This document shows, one piece after another, positions 4,026-10,220 of a stretch of 10,330 nt of DNA. Source of the stretch: Planctomycetota bacterium. GTDB lineage: Bacteria; Planctomycetota; SZUA-567; H5-PLA8. Numbering within the stretch: position 1 is the stretch's first letter; every line of letters starts with the position of its first letter. Under the pieces are notes generated by a model. That model was not told the DNA's origin, searched no databases, and worked only from the letters and a program-made list of their open reading frames with translations. The position numbers and the translations under genes are program-made. The DNA lies in assembly GCA_038227875.1 (NCBI GenBank), contig JBBRPR010000121.1:1-10330 (forward strand). The letters run 5' to 3'.

Positions 4026-5306
4026 TCACGCCACGAGTTCGACGGAATCGACGATTTGGATGGACAGAGTTGGCAAATGGAAATCGCCGTGGAAATGAAT
4101 GCGTTGAACATTGATCGCCGGCTTGATTGCGCTGCGTTCGAGCATCGGCTTCGGGTGCGGCAGCACGACGCCGGACCAGACTTCTTCCGGGGTTCGGCCG
4201 CCGTGCAGCCACATCGGTCGTTGGATGTTGTACCAATCGCGGAAGATGTCGAGTTTGCGTTGAATCCAGTCCTTCTTGCGCGCGAAAAGCGTGAGCCGCT
4301 GCCAGAGTTTGAAGGTCCTGAAGAACCGCTCGACCTTTCCGTTGAACTGCTTGGAACGATCCTTCATGCCTTTGACGACTTCGATCTTGAGCGGATTCTT
4401 CTTGAGAGCGCGCTTGAATTTGCCCCGGAACTGGCAGCCATGATCGGTGACCATGAAGCGCGGCGCGCCGAACGACTTCGCGCAGGCCTTGACGAGAGCA
4501 ACCATGTTGCGCGTGGCCGGCGCATCCTTGTAGACTTTGAGGGCCAGCAACTTGCGCGAGAAGCCATCGACAACGGCGGCGACGTAAAAGCGAACGAGAA
4601 TCAAGTCGATGGTGGTGAGGTCAAGGTGCCAGGTTTGGTTGATCCGCTCAGGTCGCAAGATGTGATGAGGCGGAACATCCGTCACGGCAGATTCCTTTTT
4701 TGCAGGCGCGTTCGGCTGCTGGGGCTTCATTTCACGGAGAATGCGCTGGACGGACGAGCGACTGATCTGGCGGCCCATTCGGACGATTTGCATGGCAATG
4801 GTCCGCGTGCCGAAGTCTTTTTCGGGGCACAGTTCTCGAATCTGGTGCACCATCCAACGCCCGGCTTCAGAAATCCTATTGATTGGCGCAGAAAAGAGCC
4901 GGCTCCCTTTCCCGCTCGTGTTCATTTCTTTGATCCAGCCGCGAAGCGTATTGGGATGCACGACGAAACGGACCGCCGTCGTTTCAATGCTCCAGCGGCG
5001 CAAGCGCATGAGTTGAACGATTTCAAAGCGGGCTTCTGGCAAATAGTGCGGCCTGTGTTGCGGCGTATGGCTTTCGATGCGCCCACGCAGAATATCGGCT
5101 TCGCGCTTCGACAATGCCGCGTCCCAGGCGTGCTCATCCCGATCGGCGAAACTGCGTACAATAGGCGAACCACTCGCCGCCGCGCGGGAGCGAACCAACA
5201 TCAGCACGGCGGTCAGGCTGCAAGCGATGGTGTCCAACGTCCGAAGAACGGATGCGGGCCAGGTGGACGGATTGTTGACGCGGACTCCGGAGTCAGGCTT
5301 TGCCAT
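4026..5306 (-). CDS. DDE transposase / integrase core (rve) protein, IS481/IS3-like
   Basis: Catalytic triad contexts QTWHLD, VTDHGCQF and NGKVERFFRTFK; C-terminal WYNIQRP...GGRTPEEVW; N-terminal HTH-like segments (TAVRFVVHPNTLRGW, ISRSSVQRIL). No convincing terminal inverted repeats were found. Confidence 0.9.
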   Translation of the reverse strand: MAKPDSGVRVNNPSTWPASVLRTLDTIACSLTAVLMLVRSRAAASGSPIVRSFADRDEHAWDAALSKREADILRGRIESHTPQHRPHYLPEARFEIVQLMRLRRWSIETTAVRFVVHPNTLRGWIKEMNTSGKGSRLFSAPINRISEAGRWMVHQIRELCPEKDFGTRTIAMQIVRMGRQISRSSVQRILREMKPQQPNAPAKKESAVTDVPPHHILRPERINQTWHLDLTTIDLILVRFYVAAVVDGFSRKLLALKVYKDAPATRNMVALVKACAKSFGAPRFMVTDHGCQFRGKFKRALKKNPLKIEVVKGMKDRSKQFNGKVERFFRTFKLWQRLTLFARKKDWIQRKLDIFRDWYNIQRPMWLHGGRTPEEVWSGVVLPHPKPMLERSAIKPAINVQRIHFHGDFHLPTLSIQIVDSVELVA

Positions 5307-5434
5307 GGAGAACGAAGTTCCTTTTCAATAGTGAAGGTCGGCCATCGTATGTACCTGGCGACTGGCCGCAAGGCGGCGTGAGAGTTCTTTGATTCTTAAA
5401 TAAGCGCGGGCACGGAATCTCGCCTGAAATCGCA

Positions 5435-5463
5435 TTGACTGAAATACGTCAATGGCGTATAGT
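5435..5463 (+). promoter_or_regulatory. Sigma70 promoter of the TA operon with overlapping operator palindromes
   Basis: TTGACT (5435-5440), 17-nt spacer, TATAGT (5458-5463). Palindromes ATACGtCA-a-TGgCGTAT (5444-5460) and CATTGAC-N8-GTCAATG (5433-5454). Confidence 0.85.
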
Positions 5464-5489: not shown

Positions 5490-5813
5490 ATGTCGGACGT
5501 TATACTTGTCGACACACCGGTGTTCTTTGAGGAGATTCATCAATATATCGACTCAAACGACCTCTGGAGTCTGCAAGAGGCATTGATACGGAATCCCGAG
5601 AAGGGCGCGATCGTCAAGGGGAGCGGAGGAATCCGAAAGATGCGCTGGCCATTGCCCGGCAAAGGCAAGAGCGGTGGGCTGCGGATCATTTACCATTGGG
5701 ATTCCACCGACCGGCGGCTGTTCTTTCTGTTTTGCTATCCGAAGTCCAAGCAAGGCGATCTGACTCCGAAGCAGATCAAGGCATTGAGAGAGACTTTGGA
5801 AGCAGACGAATAG
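5490..5813 (+). CDS. higB: Type II toxin, RelE/HigB-2 family
   Basis: Motif NPEKGAIVKGSGGIRKMRW...GKGKSGGLRIIY...YPKSKQGDLT; toxin-first gene order. Confidence 0.88.
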   Translation: MSDVILVDTPVFFEEIHQYIDSNDLWSLQEALIRNPEKGAIVKGSGGIRKMRWPLPGKGKSGGLRIIYHWDSTDRRLFFLFCYPKSKQGDLTPKQIKALRETLEADE

Positions 5814-5825
5814 GAGCTAACTCCG

Positions 5826-6125
5826 ATGAAGAAGAACGACTTCGACAAGCTGCTCCTCAGCGTGCGGCAAATGAAGCAAATCAAGAAGGGCTCGCTTAAG
5901 CCGGCGCGAGAGATCCGTGTTTCTGTTCCAAATGCCAAGCAGATTCGTGAGAAGCTGCACATGTCGCAGACGGAGTTTGCCACGTTGATTCATGTAAGCG
6001 TGGACACGATACAGAACTGGGAGCAGGGGCGCCGTATACCTGACGGGCCTGCCAGGGCACTTTTGCAGGTGGTCGAGAAATGTCCCGAGCAGGTACTTGA
6101 GGCTTTGCATGCAGCAACTCATTGA
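5826..6125 (+). CDS. higA: XRE-family HTH antitoxin (HigA-2/NadS-like)
   Basis: IREKLHMSQTEFATLIHVSVDTIQNWEQGRRIPDGPARALL; SD AGGAG at 5812-5816. Confidence 0.88.
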   Translation: MKKNDFDKLLLSVRQMKQIKKGSLKPAREIRVSVPNAKQIREKLHMSQTEFATLIHVSVDTIQNWEQGRRIPDGPARALLQVVEKCPEQVLEALHAATH

Positions 6126-6155
6126 ACAAATCGCGACGCGACAGGTCGCGCCATT

Positions 6156-6177
6156 CTGTGCCTACGCTGTGCCTACG
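6156..6177. repeat. Tandem 11-bp direct repeat, putative integrase arm-type sites (left arm)
   Basis: CTGTGCCTACG twice, perfect, about 150 bp left of the tRNA fragment. Confidence 0.75.
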
Positions 6178-6254
6178 AGTGGTCTCATTAGGGCGCGATT
6201 TGGCGCGTCCTGTCGCGAAGGCGGATTTTCGGCGGTTCTTCCAACCTCAAAATC

Positions 6255-6290
6255 TGACGTGAGTTGACGCTTGTTGACGCATCCTGTCGC
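6255..6290. repeat. Four TG(A/T)CG motifs at exact 10-bp period, putative Xis/RDF binding sites
   Basis: TGACG at 6255, 6265 and 6275, TGTCG at 6285; located between the left arm repeat and the att core. Confidence 0.65.
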
Positions 6291-6324
6291 TTAAACGCGA
6301 AAATGGCGAAATCGCGGGGGTTCT

Positions 6325-6368
6325 GCTTCCCAAGCCGAAGGTCGCGGGTTCGATGCCCGTCGCCCGCT
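6325..6368 (+). other. att core: 3' half of tRNA-Gly(CCC), not a complete tRNA
   Basis: Anticodon loop TTCCCAA (6327-6333), T-arm GCGGG-TTCGATG-CCCGT (6344-6360), acceptor 3' strand CGCCCGC (6361-6367), discriminator T. No D-arm upstream, and the 5' anticodon stem strand is mismatched. Confidence 0.9.
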
Positions 6369-6439
6369 TCAGTTTTTTCAGTCGATAACACCATGGCGTC
6401 ACAAGCCTTTACGTCAACGGCTTCCGCCCCCACTGCAAC

Positions 6440-6461
6440 CCGTTGCATACCCGCTGCATAC
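6440..6461. repeat. Tandem 11-bp direct repeat, putative integrase arm-type sites (right arm)
   Basis: CCGTTGCATAC CCGCTGCATAC; shares the TGCnTAC core and 11-bp period with 6156-6177. Confidence 0.7.
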
Positions 6462-6850
6462 TTTTCATCGAAAATGACCCGTGCGCCCACGGCTTCGGCG
6501 GTTGCGGCCAGTCGGTGCTTGCCCACGTGGGAATAGACATTCATCGTGATCTTCGGGTCCATGTGACGCAGCAACGTCTGTGCTTCCTTGACATTCGCGC
6601 CCGATTCAATCAGCAATGAACAGTACGTGTGCCGAAGACCGTGAAAGACAAGTGTTCCACCCGGCGCGATTTCTGGAATGCCCGCGGCGTCATAGTCACG
6701 GAAAAAAAGCCGATCGATGTGCTTGTCCACTGTCAGCAGTGGCGCGGCGGCGGGCTTGCCTTCGCTGGCGGTCTTCAACTTCGCGGCCAGCGCGGCCGGA
6801 ATCGGTTGTTGTGAATCCCTTCGGCCTTTCGAGTACTTCGCGGCAAGTTT

Positions 6851-6870
6851 CAGCGTGCAGCGTGCAGCGT
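6851..6870. repeat. 7-bp tandem repeat (CAGCGTG x2 + CAGCGT) at the integrase frameshift
   Basis: cagcgtg cagcgtg cagcgt read directly from the sequence. Confidence 0.95.
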
Positions 6871-7545
6871 TCGGCGTCCAGATCCGCCACGGTCAACGCG
6901 GCCAGTTCGCCCTTTCGGTACCCCGTGCACAACGCCGTTTCGTACAGCAGGCGCCGGGCGGGCGGCGCAACGTCCAGCAGCTTACCGATTTCCTTTTCAG
7001 TCATGGCGCGCCGGACAGTCTTCGGCGTCACGTCCAGCGGCGCAAAGCCTTCAAGTGGATTGCTGGCGAGATACCCGCGCCCTTTCGCCCACAAGCACAA
7101 AGCCTTGAGACTTTCAACATGCGTGTAGGTCGTCTTCCCACTCTTGCCGGCCGTCAAAAGTTCACGCGCCACGGCTTCGACCTTCGGCAGTGTAACGTCC
7201 ACCAGCGTCGTAAGGTTCAATCGTTTCGGCCAGAATTCAGTTAGGTGACGTGTTCTCGTTTCGACGTGCGTGGAACTCCACGGGCGCCCGCCATGCCCGC
7301 CTTGCGCGGTTCCCCATGCGATGTATTCAGCGGCCATGTCCGTGAATGGGCGCGCCTTGTCGCTGGCCTTCGGCGGGGGAATATGCCCTTGGCGAATTAG
7401 ACGGTCGTGGTGTTCCTTCGATTCGGCTGTCTGCCGGACTTCCTTTTCCTTCGCGTCACTGACGGGAAGGAAACGCTGTTTGCCTTGCCAGTCGATATAC
7501 CAGCCTCGAAACTTCCCGCTCGCAAGTTTCACGACTCCGGCCATG

Positions 7546-7764
7546 TCATTCACCCTTTCCCATTGCGTCTCGGCGCGGCTTGGCGATCCACGGACCCAAG
7601 CCCATGCCTTCCGCCTGAGAGGCTTTCGTCCACGCGGTTTTCTCGCTGGCCGATATTCGAATCAGAACAGGAATCTGCCGCGTCTCCGGTCCCGACGGCG
7701 GGCGTCCGGTGCGCTTCTTGTCCGCTGCAATTTCGGCGCGTGTGCGTTTCACTTTTTTAGCCAT
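7546..7764 (-). CDS. Small DNA-binding protein, probable ribbon-helix-helix regulator with a GRPP motif
   Basis: KRTGRPPSG followed by the alternating strand IPVLIRIS and two helices (ASEKTAWTKASQAEG, GLGPWIAK); stop lies 1 nt before the int ATG. Confidence 0.7.
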   Translation of the reverse strand: MAKKVKRTRAEIAADKKRTGRPPSGPETRQIPVLIRISASEKTAWTKASQAEGMGLGPWIAKPRRDAMGKGE

Positions 7765-7771
7765 GCCTCAC

Positions 7772-7801
7772 TATGTACCATTTGCGTATATCAGAAGTCA
7801 A
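7772..7801 (-). promoter_or_regulatory. Putative promoter for the RHH-int transcript, possibly leaderless
   Basis: Minus strand TTGACT (7801-7796), 18-nt spacer, TGn-TACATA (7777-7772), with ATG 7 nt further on. The -10 is imperfect. An imperfect inverted repeat overlaps it. Confidence 0.45.
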
Positions 7802-8103
7802 GACCGTAGGCGCGCAAATTTTCGCGCTTCGGCCTCAAGTCGTGCTTCGTGATGGCGAACAATGGCGCCCGCCGTCCACGTGTTCTTGCCCATCAGGCGC
7901 GCCGGGCGGGGCAATTCTCCCCGATCCACGGCGGCTTTGATGCTGGCCGTGCACTTCCCGAAAATCGTCGCTAAGCCTTCCTCGGTCACCAGCGCGCCGG
8001 GCGGGAGGGCACCGATGGAAGAAAAGACGCCGGGCATTGACGTCGCTGATAATGCGGTCACAACCGGCGGAGTGGGTGTTGCAGTATCGTTGTTCTCGGT
8101 CAT
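7798..8103 (-). CDS. AlpA/excisionase-like HTH protein (recombination directionality factor)
   Basis: LVTEEGLATIFGKCTASIKAAVDRGELPRPARLMGKNTW matches the AlpA/Xis winged-HTH pattern; located upstream of int. Confidence 0.8.
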   Translation of the reverse strand: MTENNDTATPTPPVVTALSATSMPGVFSSIGALPPGALVTEEGLATIFGKCTASIKAAVDRGELPRPARLMGKNTWTAGAIVRHHEARLEAEARKFARLRS

Positions 8104-9734
8104 GACGTGACGCTCCCTTGGGATTTTGTCTTTCGGCGTGGGTGGGTGTCAGAGTGAGAGTTTCCCCTTAAAGTTTCCTTTAAGGGAAAAACACTCTCAC
8201 ACTCCCCCCCTGTTACCTTGGGTTGAAGGTCGAGCTTAGGTTGAGGAATTGTTGCGAAACTGGGCGGCTTGTTTCCGCCATTACTCCAGCGGAAAGCTTG
8301 GCCAGTGGCCTCTGCCTTCTCTAAGAATTTCACTGCCTTGTAGTCTGTCAGGCCTTTTTCGTTTGCGTCGGCGAGTATTGCGCCCTTCAGTTTTGGACTT
8401 TGACTGATAAGCGCAGCGACGAAGCTTGTCGTGGTCCATTCGACTTTTGCTGGCTCCGTAGGTGTCGAAGAAACTTCAGGTTTCTTCGCTTTAGCGTTTG
8501 CCCTTTTGAACTCCGTCGGATCCAAGTCGGGCGCCGGCGTCCACAGCGGGAATTCAAAGCGAAGGCACCTTGAAAGCACGGGCGGCCAGCTGCGCGGCGC
8601 GGCGTCGAGCACCACCGCCGCTTCTTCGGAGTGTGGGCGCAGGATCACATGACAATCCGCGGCGCGGGAGATTGCCCCGGCCCCGGCGCCTACGTCGGTG
8701 ACGGCGCGGCCGGACTGCAAGCCTTTGCTCGTGTGGTGAATCAGCACGAAGGCACAGTGTAACTTTTCCGCATAGGCGTCGATTTGATTGTAGAGACCCG
8801 CCATGCTTCCATTGTCGTTTTCGTCGGTGTCTTTCGGTAAGAACCGATAGAAGGCATCCAGCACAATGACGCTGAAGTACCCCGGCTCCAGCGCGTTTAA
8901 CATGGGCCCCAGGGTGAATATGTCCTTCAAATTTCCGCGCAATAGCTCGTACGCAATTTTGTTTTCATATCGATCACGCGCGATACCCTTTGCTTCCGCA
9001 ACCCGTGGCAATCGGTTGCCGATCGTTTCGGCGTGCAACTCGTTGTCTAATATCAGCACCCGCCCCGGCGCCACATCGAAGCCAAGCCATTTCAGACCCG
9101 TCGCCACGCTCAAAGCAAAATCCAGTGTTAGCCAGGTCTTGCCCGTCTTCGGCGGCGCGATGACGTTCATCGTCTCGCCTTCGCGAAGTAGACCGTGGAC
9201 TAGCGGCCGCCGTAAGCATGTGTATTTGTCAATGAGCGACCCCACAAAATGATAGGGCGGCGTCGAAGTAGCGCGTTGCACGGCGGTCACTGCTTTCAAC
9301 GCGTCCACCGCGGCGCCGTCTTCACCTTTTTGCAGCAAGGTGCTTGCGCTGACGAGTGCCTCGGCAAGTTGGCGGCGACGCGTGTACTGTTTGAGCGTGG
9401 AAATCTCGGTTTCAATGTTTGCGCCGCTGTGCAAGCCGGCATCATGATACAGGTTCCCAATGAAGCGCTTCCCGCCCACAGATTCAAGATTTCCGGCGCG
9501 TTCCATTTCCGCCACGATGGAAATTTCATCTCCCAAGTTGAGTCTGGCGAGATGACAGGTGCGGAAGGCAATGAACGCAGCGCGGTACATCGGACTGTAA
9601 AAGTCCGATTCGAGCAATTCCTCGAACGCAATTCCTGCACACCTCGAGTCCGCAAGGCATGAAAGAATCGGACTGCGTTCGGCATCCTGTGAGTACAGTC
9701 GGGCGATAGGCCGGCCAGCGTTCAAGTTACACAC
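8100..9734 (-). CDS. Replicative helicase: DnaB-like N-terminal domain plus AAA_25/RepA(RSF1010)-type ATPase
   Basis: N-terminal SQDAERSPILSCL...LESDFYSPMYRAAF...LESVGG resembles DnaB_N. Walker A APPKTGKT, RVLILDNE, Walker B IVLDAFY, LIHHTSKG, GAGAISRAAD. Start codon uncertain (no SD seen); possibly 5'-truncated. Confidence 0.85.
   Translation of the reverse strand: MCNLNAGRPIARLYSQDAERSPILSCLADSRCAGIAFEELLESDFYSPMYRAAFIAFRTCHLARLNLGDEISIVAEMERAGNLESVGGKRFIGNLYHDAGLHSGANIETEISTLKQYTRRRQLAEALVSASTLLQKGEDGAAVDALKAVTAVQRATSTPPYHFVGSLIDKYTCLRRPLVHGLLREGETMNVIAPPKTGKTWLTLDFALSVATGLKWLGFDVAPGRVLILDNELHAETIGNRLPRVAEAKGIARDRYENKIAYELLRGNLKDIFTLGPMLNALEPGYFSVIVLDAFYRFLPKDTDENDNGSMAGLYNQIDAYAEKLHCAFVLIHHTSKGLQSGRAVTDVGAGAGAISRAADCHVILRPHSEEAAVVLDAAPRSWPPVLSRCLRFEFPLWTPAPDLDPTEFKRANAKAKKPEVSSTPTEPAKVEWTTTSFVAALISQSPKLKGAILADANEKGLTDYKAVKFLEKAEATGQAFRWSNGGNKPPSFATIPQPKLDLQPKVTGGECESVFPLKETLRGNSHSDTHPRRKTKSQGSVTS
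8154..8200. repeat. Long imperfect inverted repeat inside the helicase 3' end, candidate replication origin
   Basis: GTGAGAG-TTT-c-CCCTTAAAG-tttc-CTTTAAGGG-a-AAA-aca-CTCTCAC. Confidence 0.7.
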
Positions 9735-10220
9735 GGGTACTTATGGAATCACCGGTATTCAGGGCATCACGGGTGCCGGTTCGGGCAGTTCTGCTTCTGT
9801 GAATTACCTGATTAATCCTGCGTGGGAAATAGCGGGCTTTGCTGAAGGTCAGATAGTCGGTGTTCTGAGTGAAGACTCGATGTTCCCAGGCTGGAGAGCC
9901 AACGGTTGGACAGGTATGGCTGGTGTGACCGGTGTTGCTTACATTCAAGTCCAAAAATACAACAGATTGAGTGGTGGTGTCTGGTCCTGTGGTCTCGGTG
10001 CCACGGGAATACTTGGAACTAATACCTAATGGCAGCTAACGTTTCGTCACCAGTATCAGTAGTCGGGCAGCACTATTTCGTTTCCATATCCGCTGGCACG
10101 GATCGAAACACGGACCAAGTGTTTACCGTTGGACTGAAAGCTGACGGCTCCGCTTGGTGTTGGGGCGATAACTCACACGGTAATTGCGGTGGAAGCGTCC
10201 CACTGATTGTTGAAAATTGA
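9733..10220 (+). pseudogene. Broken fragment of a collagen-like plus RCC1-repeat protein gene
   Basis: Frame 1 gives TGTYGITGIQGITGAGSG...GGVWSCGLGATGILGTNT*. A shifted frame continues AANVSSPVSVVGQHYFVSISAG...VGLKADGSAWCWGDNSHGNCG, an RCC1-type repeat. No ATG upstream in the open frame, and the repeat stops abruptly near 10190. Confidence 0.75.

Follow-up and report, generated by a model that had tools for sequence, protein, structure and literature searches.

An integrase reading frame that continues through its own att core and an antisense tRNA-Gly fragment in Planctomycetota

Introduction

The myxophage Mx8 integrates into tRNA-Asp genes; the title of a 1996 study by Tojo et al. is part of the basis on which loci with attP inside int are compared with this phage. 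In lambda, the DNA across attP differs between the free and the integrated state and can change int expression (the sib effect). This effect acts via an RNA structure that triggers mRNA decay, and the lambda int ORF stops before the core.

In other systems the recombination site lies inside a coding sequence. The Mx8 attP is within the int coding sequence and integration makes a new 3' end, the new C-terminus having modified but not abolished integrase function, according to a review that gives the details of IntX second-hand (PMC6070905). The Islander paper notes that tRNA fragments may overlap integrase ORFs since Mx8 and SSV integrases extend across attP, and the A and J att site classes are taken from the same paper. 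In 'suicidal' integrases of the SSV type the recombination site is within the ORF and integration splits int into two inactive pseudogenes (PMC7253208). In the BPs type (PMC9934374) the attP core is in the repressor gene, the prophage form is shorter, with a host stop at attL, and the lost repressor tail bears an ssrA-like –AA degradation tag. Our literature search on integrase/attP overlap in Planctomycetota found no paper on the arrangement.

Here we describe a Planctomycetota locus of this kind and its relatives. The window, meaning the whole stretch of DNA analysed, is the entire 10,330-bp contig C121 of a 9.3 Mb assembly (176 contigs, 88% complete).

Results

The window integrase is a tyrosine recombinase interrupted by a 7-bp duplication

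The features of the locus are collected in Table 1. By its residues the minus-strand int product is a tyrosine recombinase / phage integrase (PF00589): the first catalytic Arg sits in the N-terminal frame (YRKGEL), the ORF that follows has HGLRHTY, LRH and the Tyr in NVYSH, and alignments A2 and A5 show no variation in the H, R, H and Y columns. The C-terminal part matched Pfam PF00589 with an E of 1.4e-8 (35.1 bits, cut-off 27.1), while the match of the N-terminal half, which is 60–68% identical to the intact integrases of G013 and G015, was weak and under the cut-off (E 0.0064). The candidate excisionase/regulator ORF has no match in Pfam or NCBIfam and shows 61% amino acid identity to the syntenic ORF of G013.

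Table 1. Positions of the att core, the integrase gene and neighbouring features in the window.
Feature	Position	Strand	Remarks
rve-family IS transposase	4026-5306		just left of the toxin-antitoxin pair
RelE-family toxin	5490-5813	+	Pfam PF06296, E 6.7e-9
HTH antitoxin	5826-6125	+	Pfam PF01381, E 5.6e-10; ends 9 bp before the P arm
Left (P) arm	6134..6324	.	conserved DNA module with repeats, ~190 bp
P-arm 17-mer, inverted copy	6137-6153
P-arm tandem	6156-6177		CTGTGCCTACG x2, 11-bp motif
P-arm 17-mer	6200		TTGGCGCGTCCTGTCGC
P-arm 17-mer	6274		TTGACGCATCCTGTCGC
Post-core int tail	6188..6325	-	45 codons QNPRDF...RQIAP plus stop 6188-6190; part that recombination would exchange
att core	6325..6369	+	tRNA-Gly(CCC) 3' part, 45 bp; minus-strand reading AGDGHRTRDLRLGK
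Right (P') arm = conserved Int C-terminal extension	6371..6532	-	..RLAATAEAVG..KYAAGMQRVAVGAEAVDVKA..
Tandem pair (repeat D8)	6438-6459		11 bp, inside the P' arm / Int extension
int C-terminal catalytic part	6533..6862	-	HxxR, RH; catalytic Tyr codon 6533-6535
ORF with the int C-terminal part	6188..6778	-	in-frame open back to 6862
7-bp tandem duplication	6851..6869	.	unit cagcgtg, 2.7 copies; frameshifts int
int N-terminal half	6867..7553	-	arm-binding and core-binding domains and start of catalytic domain; ORF 6696..7553
Candidate excisionase/regulator	7546..7764	-	72-aa ORF directly upstream of int, overlapping its start; role from position only

The first-pass annotation made no mention of a break in the integrase, which is not a single reading frame: the duplication puts the two halves in different frames, with RCTL read across it in both. 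Run X1 is the probable source sample, and one of its Logan contigs matches 6340-10219 without a single difference, duplication included, so that the duplication is not peculiar to the assembly. In the intact relatives int is continuous across the site, and programmed frameshifting at the 7-bp repeat was ruled out because these relatives stay in one frame there. Judged from its sequence, the window copy of int is disabled by the duplication.

The frame remains open through the P' arm and an antisense tRNA-Gly(CCC) fragment

The same annotation had read the frame as open past the catalytic Tyr through the right arm and the antisense tRNA to position 6188, and here we find what it described: 114 open codons follow the Tyr codon, the core lies 55 codons past the Tyr and the stop comes another 45 codons on. 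The Int extension that precedes the core carries the motifs AEAVG and AxGAE..D, which are found again in homologs of 35–45% identity. Within the product, EAGDGHRTRDLRLGK, the antisense reading of the tRNA-Gly(CCC) 3' part, follows the NVYSH region and precedes the 45-aa tail.

The tRNA fragment was identified by comparison with relatives, a complete tRNA having been found in the window neither by ARAGORN nor by Rfam at E up to 1. In alignment A1 the sequence is identical to intact tRNA-Gly(CCC) between 6325 and at least 6369, with 0 mismatches over 6327-6367 to the genes of G001, G015 and G009; the core begins two bases ahead of the anticodon loop and ends one base past the discriminator. A core search in the order's 20 genomes gave a match within 3 mismatches in 5 of them, and ARAGORN called an intact tRNA at 4/5 fetched core-matching loci. 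The element thus carries a 3' tRNA fragment from the anticodon stem-loop and would regenerate the tRNA, as A-type islands do; by architecture its int is an integrase extending across attP, with the core inside the ORF and downstream of the catalytic Tyr.

The probability of 70 codons without a stop downstream of the last conserved residues is about 0.07 in shuffles and 0.085 by composition, so the run alone is unremarkable. The weight is carried by the pattern across relatives rather than by the open run.

Integration would exchange the integrase C-terminus

Recombination within the core would exchange everything after ...LGK. The host tRNA-Gly(CCC) was not found among the 81 tRNA genes of the assembly (four Gly, none CCC), so the prediction is based on the 5' halves of the relatives' genes; the 176 contigs also lack a second core copy, the best partial matches being other tRNAs. 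Read antisense in the int frame, the relatives' intact tRNA-Gly(CCC) gives ...AGDGHRTRDLRLGKPTLCH and then a TGA in the antisense D-loop, and the predicted integrated ending is ...LGKPTLCH*, with 5 aa (PTLCH) in place of 45.

An exhaustive protein search over 1.84 billion representative proteins revealed P0004, which is 56% identical to the C-terminal part of the window's int and ends ...AGEGVRTLDFDLGKVALYH (...GKVALYH). This ending is the letter-for-letter antisense reading of an intact tRNA-Gly(GCC) (G013:C578). P0004 is a natural integrated isoform, and the swapped C-terminus is thus observed in a relative. In both CCC and GCC elements the integrated form ends at the same antisense D-loop TGA, 5–6 residues past the core. 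The first-pass annotation had proposed that the 45-aa tail is exchanged with the catalytic residues kept, and had pointed to the attL translation as the way to see it; both ideas are borne out, the core being inside the int ORF and downstream of all catalytic residues, the translation giving PTLCH and a stop, and P0004 providing the counterpart in nature.

A closely related element has the same layout

The closest genomic relative, G013:C290, is 65% identical and has an attP-type layout. Taken from the MAGV start, its int is an uninterrupted ORF of 494 aa. The frame passes antisense through a 3' fragment of tRNA-Gly(GCC) and goes on for 79 more residues, and an intact tRNA-Gly(GCC) is present elsewhere in the genome. 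Homology between the window and G013 breaks off at 6319-6323, the core's left edge.

The target fragment can also lie the other way round. The integrases of L005 (G015:C223, about 1440-1470) and L004 (G013:C290, 1513-1560) are 83% identical in the catalytic body (91/109 codons), and their tRNA-Gly(GCC) fragments are opposite in orientation and different in extent: the G013 fragment runs from the anticodon loop to the end and is read antisense by int, and the G015 fragment is a ~21-nt piece from T-loop to end, read by int in sense orientation, where int itself occupies the other end of an element of ~20 kb. A sense tRNA-like or tmRNA-like 3' end was found within the ORF tail of L005, L006, L011, L012 and L014 by eye and by T-arm motif, L005 being the one confirmed against an intact gene. 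By appearance P0007 and P0005 belong to this sense type as well.

The P arm abuts the core as in an attP

The order P arm, core, int is that of an attP or of a joint between two tandem elements. The 17-mers and the 11-bp tandem of the P arm are typical of arm sites, and we regard them as putative ones. The module is also found in metagenome contigs, at 82% over 236 nt in L056 and 85% over 127 nt in L057, where it is joined via the same core to a different right flank without integrase; the antisense ORF in these modules is just 42 aa, with no int reading in.

The rare hexamer CCTACG is paired in tandem, at a spacing of 10–11 bp, in the P arm of the window (6156-6177) and in that of G013 (L004 1452-1467), in opposite orientation. 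A CCTACG-like pair, GTGCCTAC, follows the core of L056 and L057 at about 35–60 bp and is also present downstream of the intact tRNA-Gly(CCC) of G009:C235. The pair may be an arm-type binding site, in which case the right flanks of L056, L057 and G009 would be element DNA and not host DNA.

Left of the P arm, beyond the toxin-antitoxin pair and the transposase, are genes for a hybrid histidine kinase and a KaiC-like ATPase. The spacer between these two (1798-1883, 1991-2151) holds two pairs of long direct repeats, one of 38 nt at 97% identity and 48 bp apart, the other of 47 nt at 94% and 114 bp apart, the latter reaching into the kinase ORF at its start. Run X1 also contains a second, diverged version of 4920-5445, with 60 differences.

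The X1 Logan contigs (6006-6354 and 6340-10219) break inside the core, with a depth of 14–19 on the P-arm side and 9.6 on the int side. Some of the population may have the P arm linked to different DNA, which contig depth cannot prove. Runs X2, X3 and X6 contain short pieces of the locus only, and the two ends do not overlap in the window contig or in G013:C290.

These observations bear on whether the locus is a decaying relic, consisting of a dead integrase and a leftover tRNA fragment, perhaps at a tandem-element joint; the 45-aa read-through would then be meaningless here because full-length Int is not made. The frameshift, found identically in an independent contig, fits this account, as do the IS transposase and the toxin-antitoxin pair just left of the P arm, the lack of a second core copy or a tRNA-Gly(CCC) in the assembly, the uneven depth with contigs breaking in the core, and the end of G013 homology at the left edge of the core. 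However, the 7-bp event is the one lesion in int, whose two halves are otherwise intact and 60–68% identical to working-looking relatives, so that the damage is recent, and a conserved element-type P arm directly abuts the core as in a genuine attP. The attP-type layout recurs in G013, where int is uninterrupted and the intact tRNA lies elsewhere, and decay would in any case concern the window copy and not the architecture. We give the relic account a small chance, and we infer that the junction is an attP instead of a tandem-element joint.

Integrase ORFs of the clade end within or beyond their target genes

We surveyed the integrase clade in Planctomycetota twice. The first survey had 19 loci, 18 after L020 was set aside as without match, 9 of which have a convergent intact tRNA beside int. 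In 8/9 the stop is inside the tRNA (L007, L009, L013, L017, L018, L022) or beyond its 5' end (L008, L019), and the exception, L010, has a run of N in its ORF. The second survey had 18 loci, two of them already in the first and 16 new, drawn partly from a search with the 4-sequence alignment A3 (8 loci) and partly from a phylum-wide search of 401 genomes. At ten of the new loci an intact tRNA or tmRNA gene converges on int at most 500 nt from the stop, and eight of these ORFs stop inside the gene (L046, L049, L051, L053, L055, L032, L036) or beyond it (L047), the exceptions stopping 27 nt (L035) and 243 nt (L052) short. Together, the int ORF ends inside or beyond the convergent gene at 16/19 loci, a denominator that leaves out L021 (genome G017), which has no tRNA near its stop. 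The first-pass annotation had named homologs stopping before the core as what would speak against its reading, and most of the homologs do the opposite. By these surveys the int/core overlap is a trait of the whole clade.

The geometry is also shared. The tRNA 3' end lies 53–57 codons past the Tyr in 6/9 loci of the first survey, and the antisense T-arm begins 49–58 codons past it in 8/9 loci of the second that have such a match. Between Tyr and tRNA the first ~45 codons are conserved protein, which leaves about 10 free codons. By composition 5.7 of the 9 ORFs in the first survey are expected to reach the tRNA, and the overlap is thus mostly due to core position and not to selection for an open frame.

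Several unusual tRNA genes came up alongside. Integrases of the clade are seated in tRNA-SeC genes at L007 and L008. ARAGORN also called two tRNA-SeC genes in this genome, G000 (C13:840-935 and C47:42458-42548), a tRNA with anticodon CTA, labelled Pyl, at G000:C67:21469-21544, and an array of 30 tRNA genes for many amino acids on one strand over about 6 kb at G000:C25:15917-21842, which may be a phage-like or mobile tRNA island.

The tail resembles a by-product of P-arm DNA more than a conserved peptide

Nei-Gojobori counts between the window and G013 indicate protein constraint in the catalytic body (109 codons; pN 0.21, pS 0.69) and in the Tyr-to-core extension (54 codons, 32 identical; pN 0.27, pS 0.67), and DNA constraint in the core (15 codons; pN 0.32, pS 0.29). 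In the post-core tail (34 aligned codons, 8 identical; pN 0.54, pS 0.77) constraint is not detectable, this estimate being one saturated pairwise comparison over 34 poorly aligned codons. Tails of the attP form differ in length and in ending: 45 aa in the window (RQIAP), 79 in G013 (TRS), 21 in P0009 (LDI) and 50 in P0010 (DQS), and an ssrA-like –AA ending is absent from the window tail.

Alignments beyond residue 183 of 224 are limited, within the best 150 of 7307 matches, to P0003 (which is the window product itself), P0010 and P0073. P0010 is an integrase 41% identical in the catalytic part with the same CCC core, and its tail aligns gapless with the window tail, with about 18/45 residues identical by a by-eye count. 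The shared peptide blocks KRQDA and DRTR coincide with the P-arm 17-mers, and conserved P-arm DNA is the likely reason for the resemblance, which could instead reflect selection on the peptide. The DNA encoding P0010 was not found in a scan of viral contigs, and a phylum-wide search of 401 genomes gave relatives of at most 51% identity, none covering the tail.

An AlphaFold2 model of the G013 integrase, built on a shallow 11-sequence alignment (mean pLDDT 76.6), is confident in the catalytic domain and the post-Tyr helix and falls below pLDDT 50 at residues 371-457, which span the part encoded by the core and some 40 aa at the start of the tail. The final 35 residues are predicted as a confident helical hairpin (pLDDT 85–91) specific to G013. 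Homologs do not align with this far end of the tail, PPATLLAELKKLLASLPEDQRLEFLNSLKND (L004 1273-1380, residues 460-488), and the modelled hairpin may be a separate small gene fused in frame.

These data speak to the proposal that the state-dependent C-terminus is an evolved switch, as has been suggested for Mx8 IntP/IntX, in which the long-tailed free form and the prophage form, trimmed by the in-frame TGA of the tRNA, would be unequal in activity, site preference or stability and would bias the element to integration when free and to staying when integrated. The swap is real and found in nature, the integrated forms of CCC and GCC elements share their stop, the overlap is retained across a phylum-wide clade, and the P0010 tail is similar to that of the window. 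Tail function also has a precedent, because the review of Mx8 reports that its altered C-terminus changes integrase behaviour. Against this, the free-form tails vary in both length and sequence, protein-level constraint is undetectable against G013, the likeness to P0010 is probably explained by P-arm DNA that is present also without int, the tail lacks an ssrA-like ending, and most overlaps are predicted from geometry alone. We hold an evolved switch to be unlikely. The first-pass annotation had suggested isoforms differing in stability or directionality; the same variable, seemingly unconstrained tails, together with the frameshift in this copy of int, leave that suggestion unsupported.

Discussion

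Our analysis indicates that the tail swap is a real consequence of integration and that the tail itself is probably a tolerated, disordered by-product of the compact att/int layout and not an evolved switch. The clade places its core about 50–57 codons past the Tyr, directly behind the conserved C-terminal extension, and the ORF is therefore normally still open at the core. It then continues to the first chance stop in whichever DNA lies across the core. In the attP form this is the P arm, giving 45 aa here, and in the integrated form it would be the antisense tRNA 5' half, giving PTLCH (5 aa) before the antisense D-loop TGA. We infer that the tail is without function, and from the alignments a functional isoform switch seems less likely than a by-product. 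Several points count against the by-product: the 8/9 ORFs that reach the tRNA are somewhat more than the 5.7 expected, and there are the tail likeness of P0010, the confident hairpin in the G013 tail, the single saturated comparison behind the constraint estimate and the precedent of Mx8.

A bolder idea, modelled on Mx8, is that across this Planctomycetota clade a core ~55 codons past the Tyr could act as a built-in integration-state sensor. The protein would carry a long disordered tail encoded by the P arm when the element is free, trimmed by an antisense tRNA or tmRNA stop when it is integrated, and the difference might tune activity, stability or directionality with no dedicated regulator needed. 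We consider this quite unlikely. If the tail swap were functional, it would be a very economical sensing of integration by a mobile element, and the clade, whose geometry stays constant over its many tRNA gene targets and tmRNA, would be a good test system.

The by-product reading has practical consequences for annotation. Planctomycetota integrase ORFs are expected to enter tRNA or tmRNA genes, and such an overlap should not be mistaken for a gene-calling error. The C-terminal 20–100 residues of these ORFs should not be assigned to the protein family. With its constant value, the spacing between Tyr codon and core is a simple locator of att sites for the clade.

We also compared the locus with known phages and described systems. 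By tblastn, the C-terminal part of int matched 543 of 50,697 phage records, all at less than 60% identity and none covering 80% of the query; the 25 matches listed include no Myxococcus phage. SSV1 and BPs had been offered as precedents, and Mx8 IntP/IntX is closer, since SSV1 splits the catalytic domain and the BPs gene is a repressor. The locus shares with SSV1 a recombination site inside the integrase ORF; unlike a suicidal integrase, the window int keeps all catalytic residues on the int side of a core that lies ~55 codons past the Tyr. With BPs it shares a core inside a coding sequence and a shorter integrated form, but the gene here is int, the tail has no –AA tag and the arrangement is not one of integration-dependent immunity. 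In lambda sib the consequence is mRNA decay, whereas here it is a changed protein tail. What Mx8 has in common with this locus, by the review's account of IntP/IntX, is an attP core in int downstream of the catalytic residues and a recombinant int 3' end; the two differ in phylum, and the target here is tRNA-Gly, read antisense. The architecture is thus already known from Mx8, and what is new is its modest generalisation to one integrase clade.
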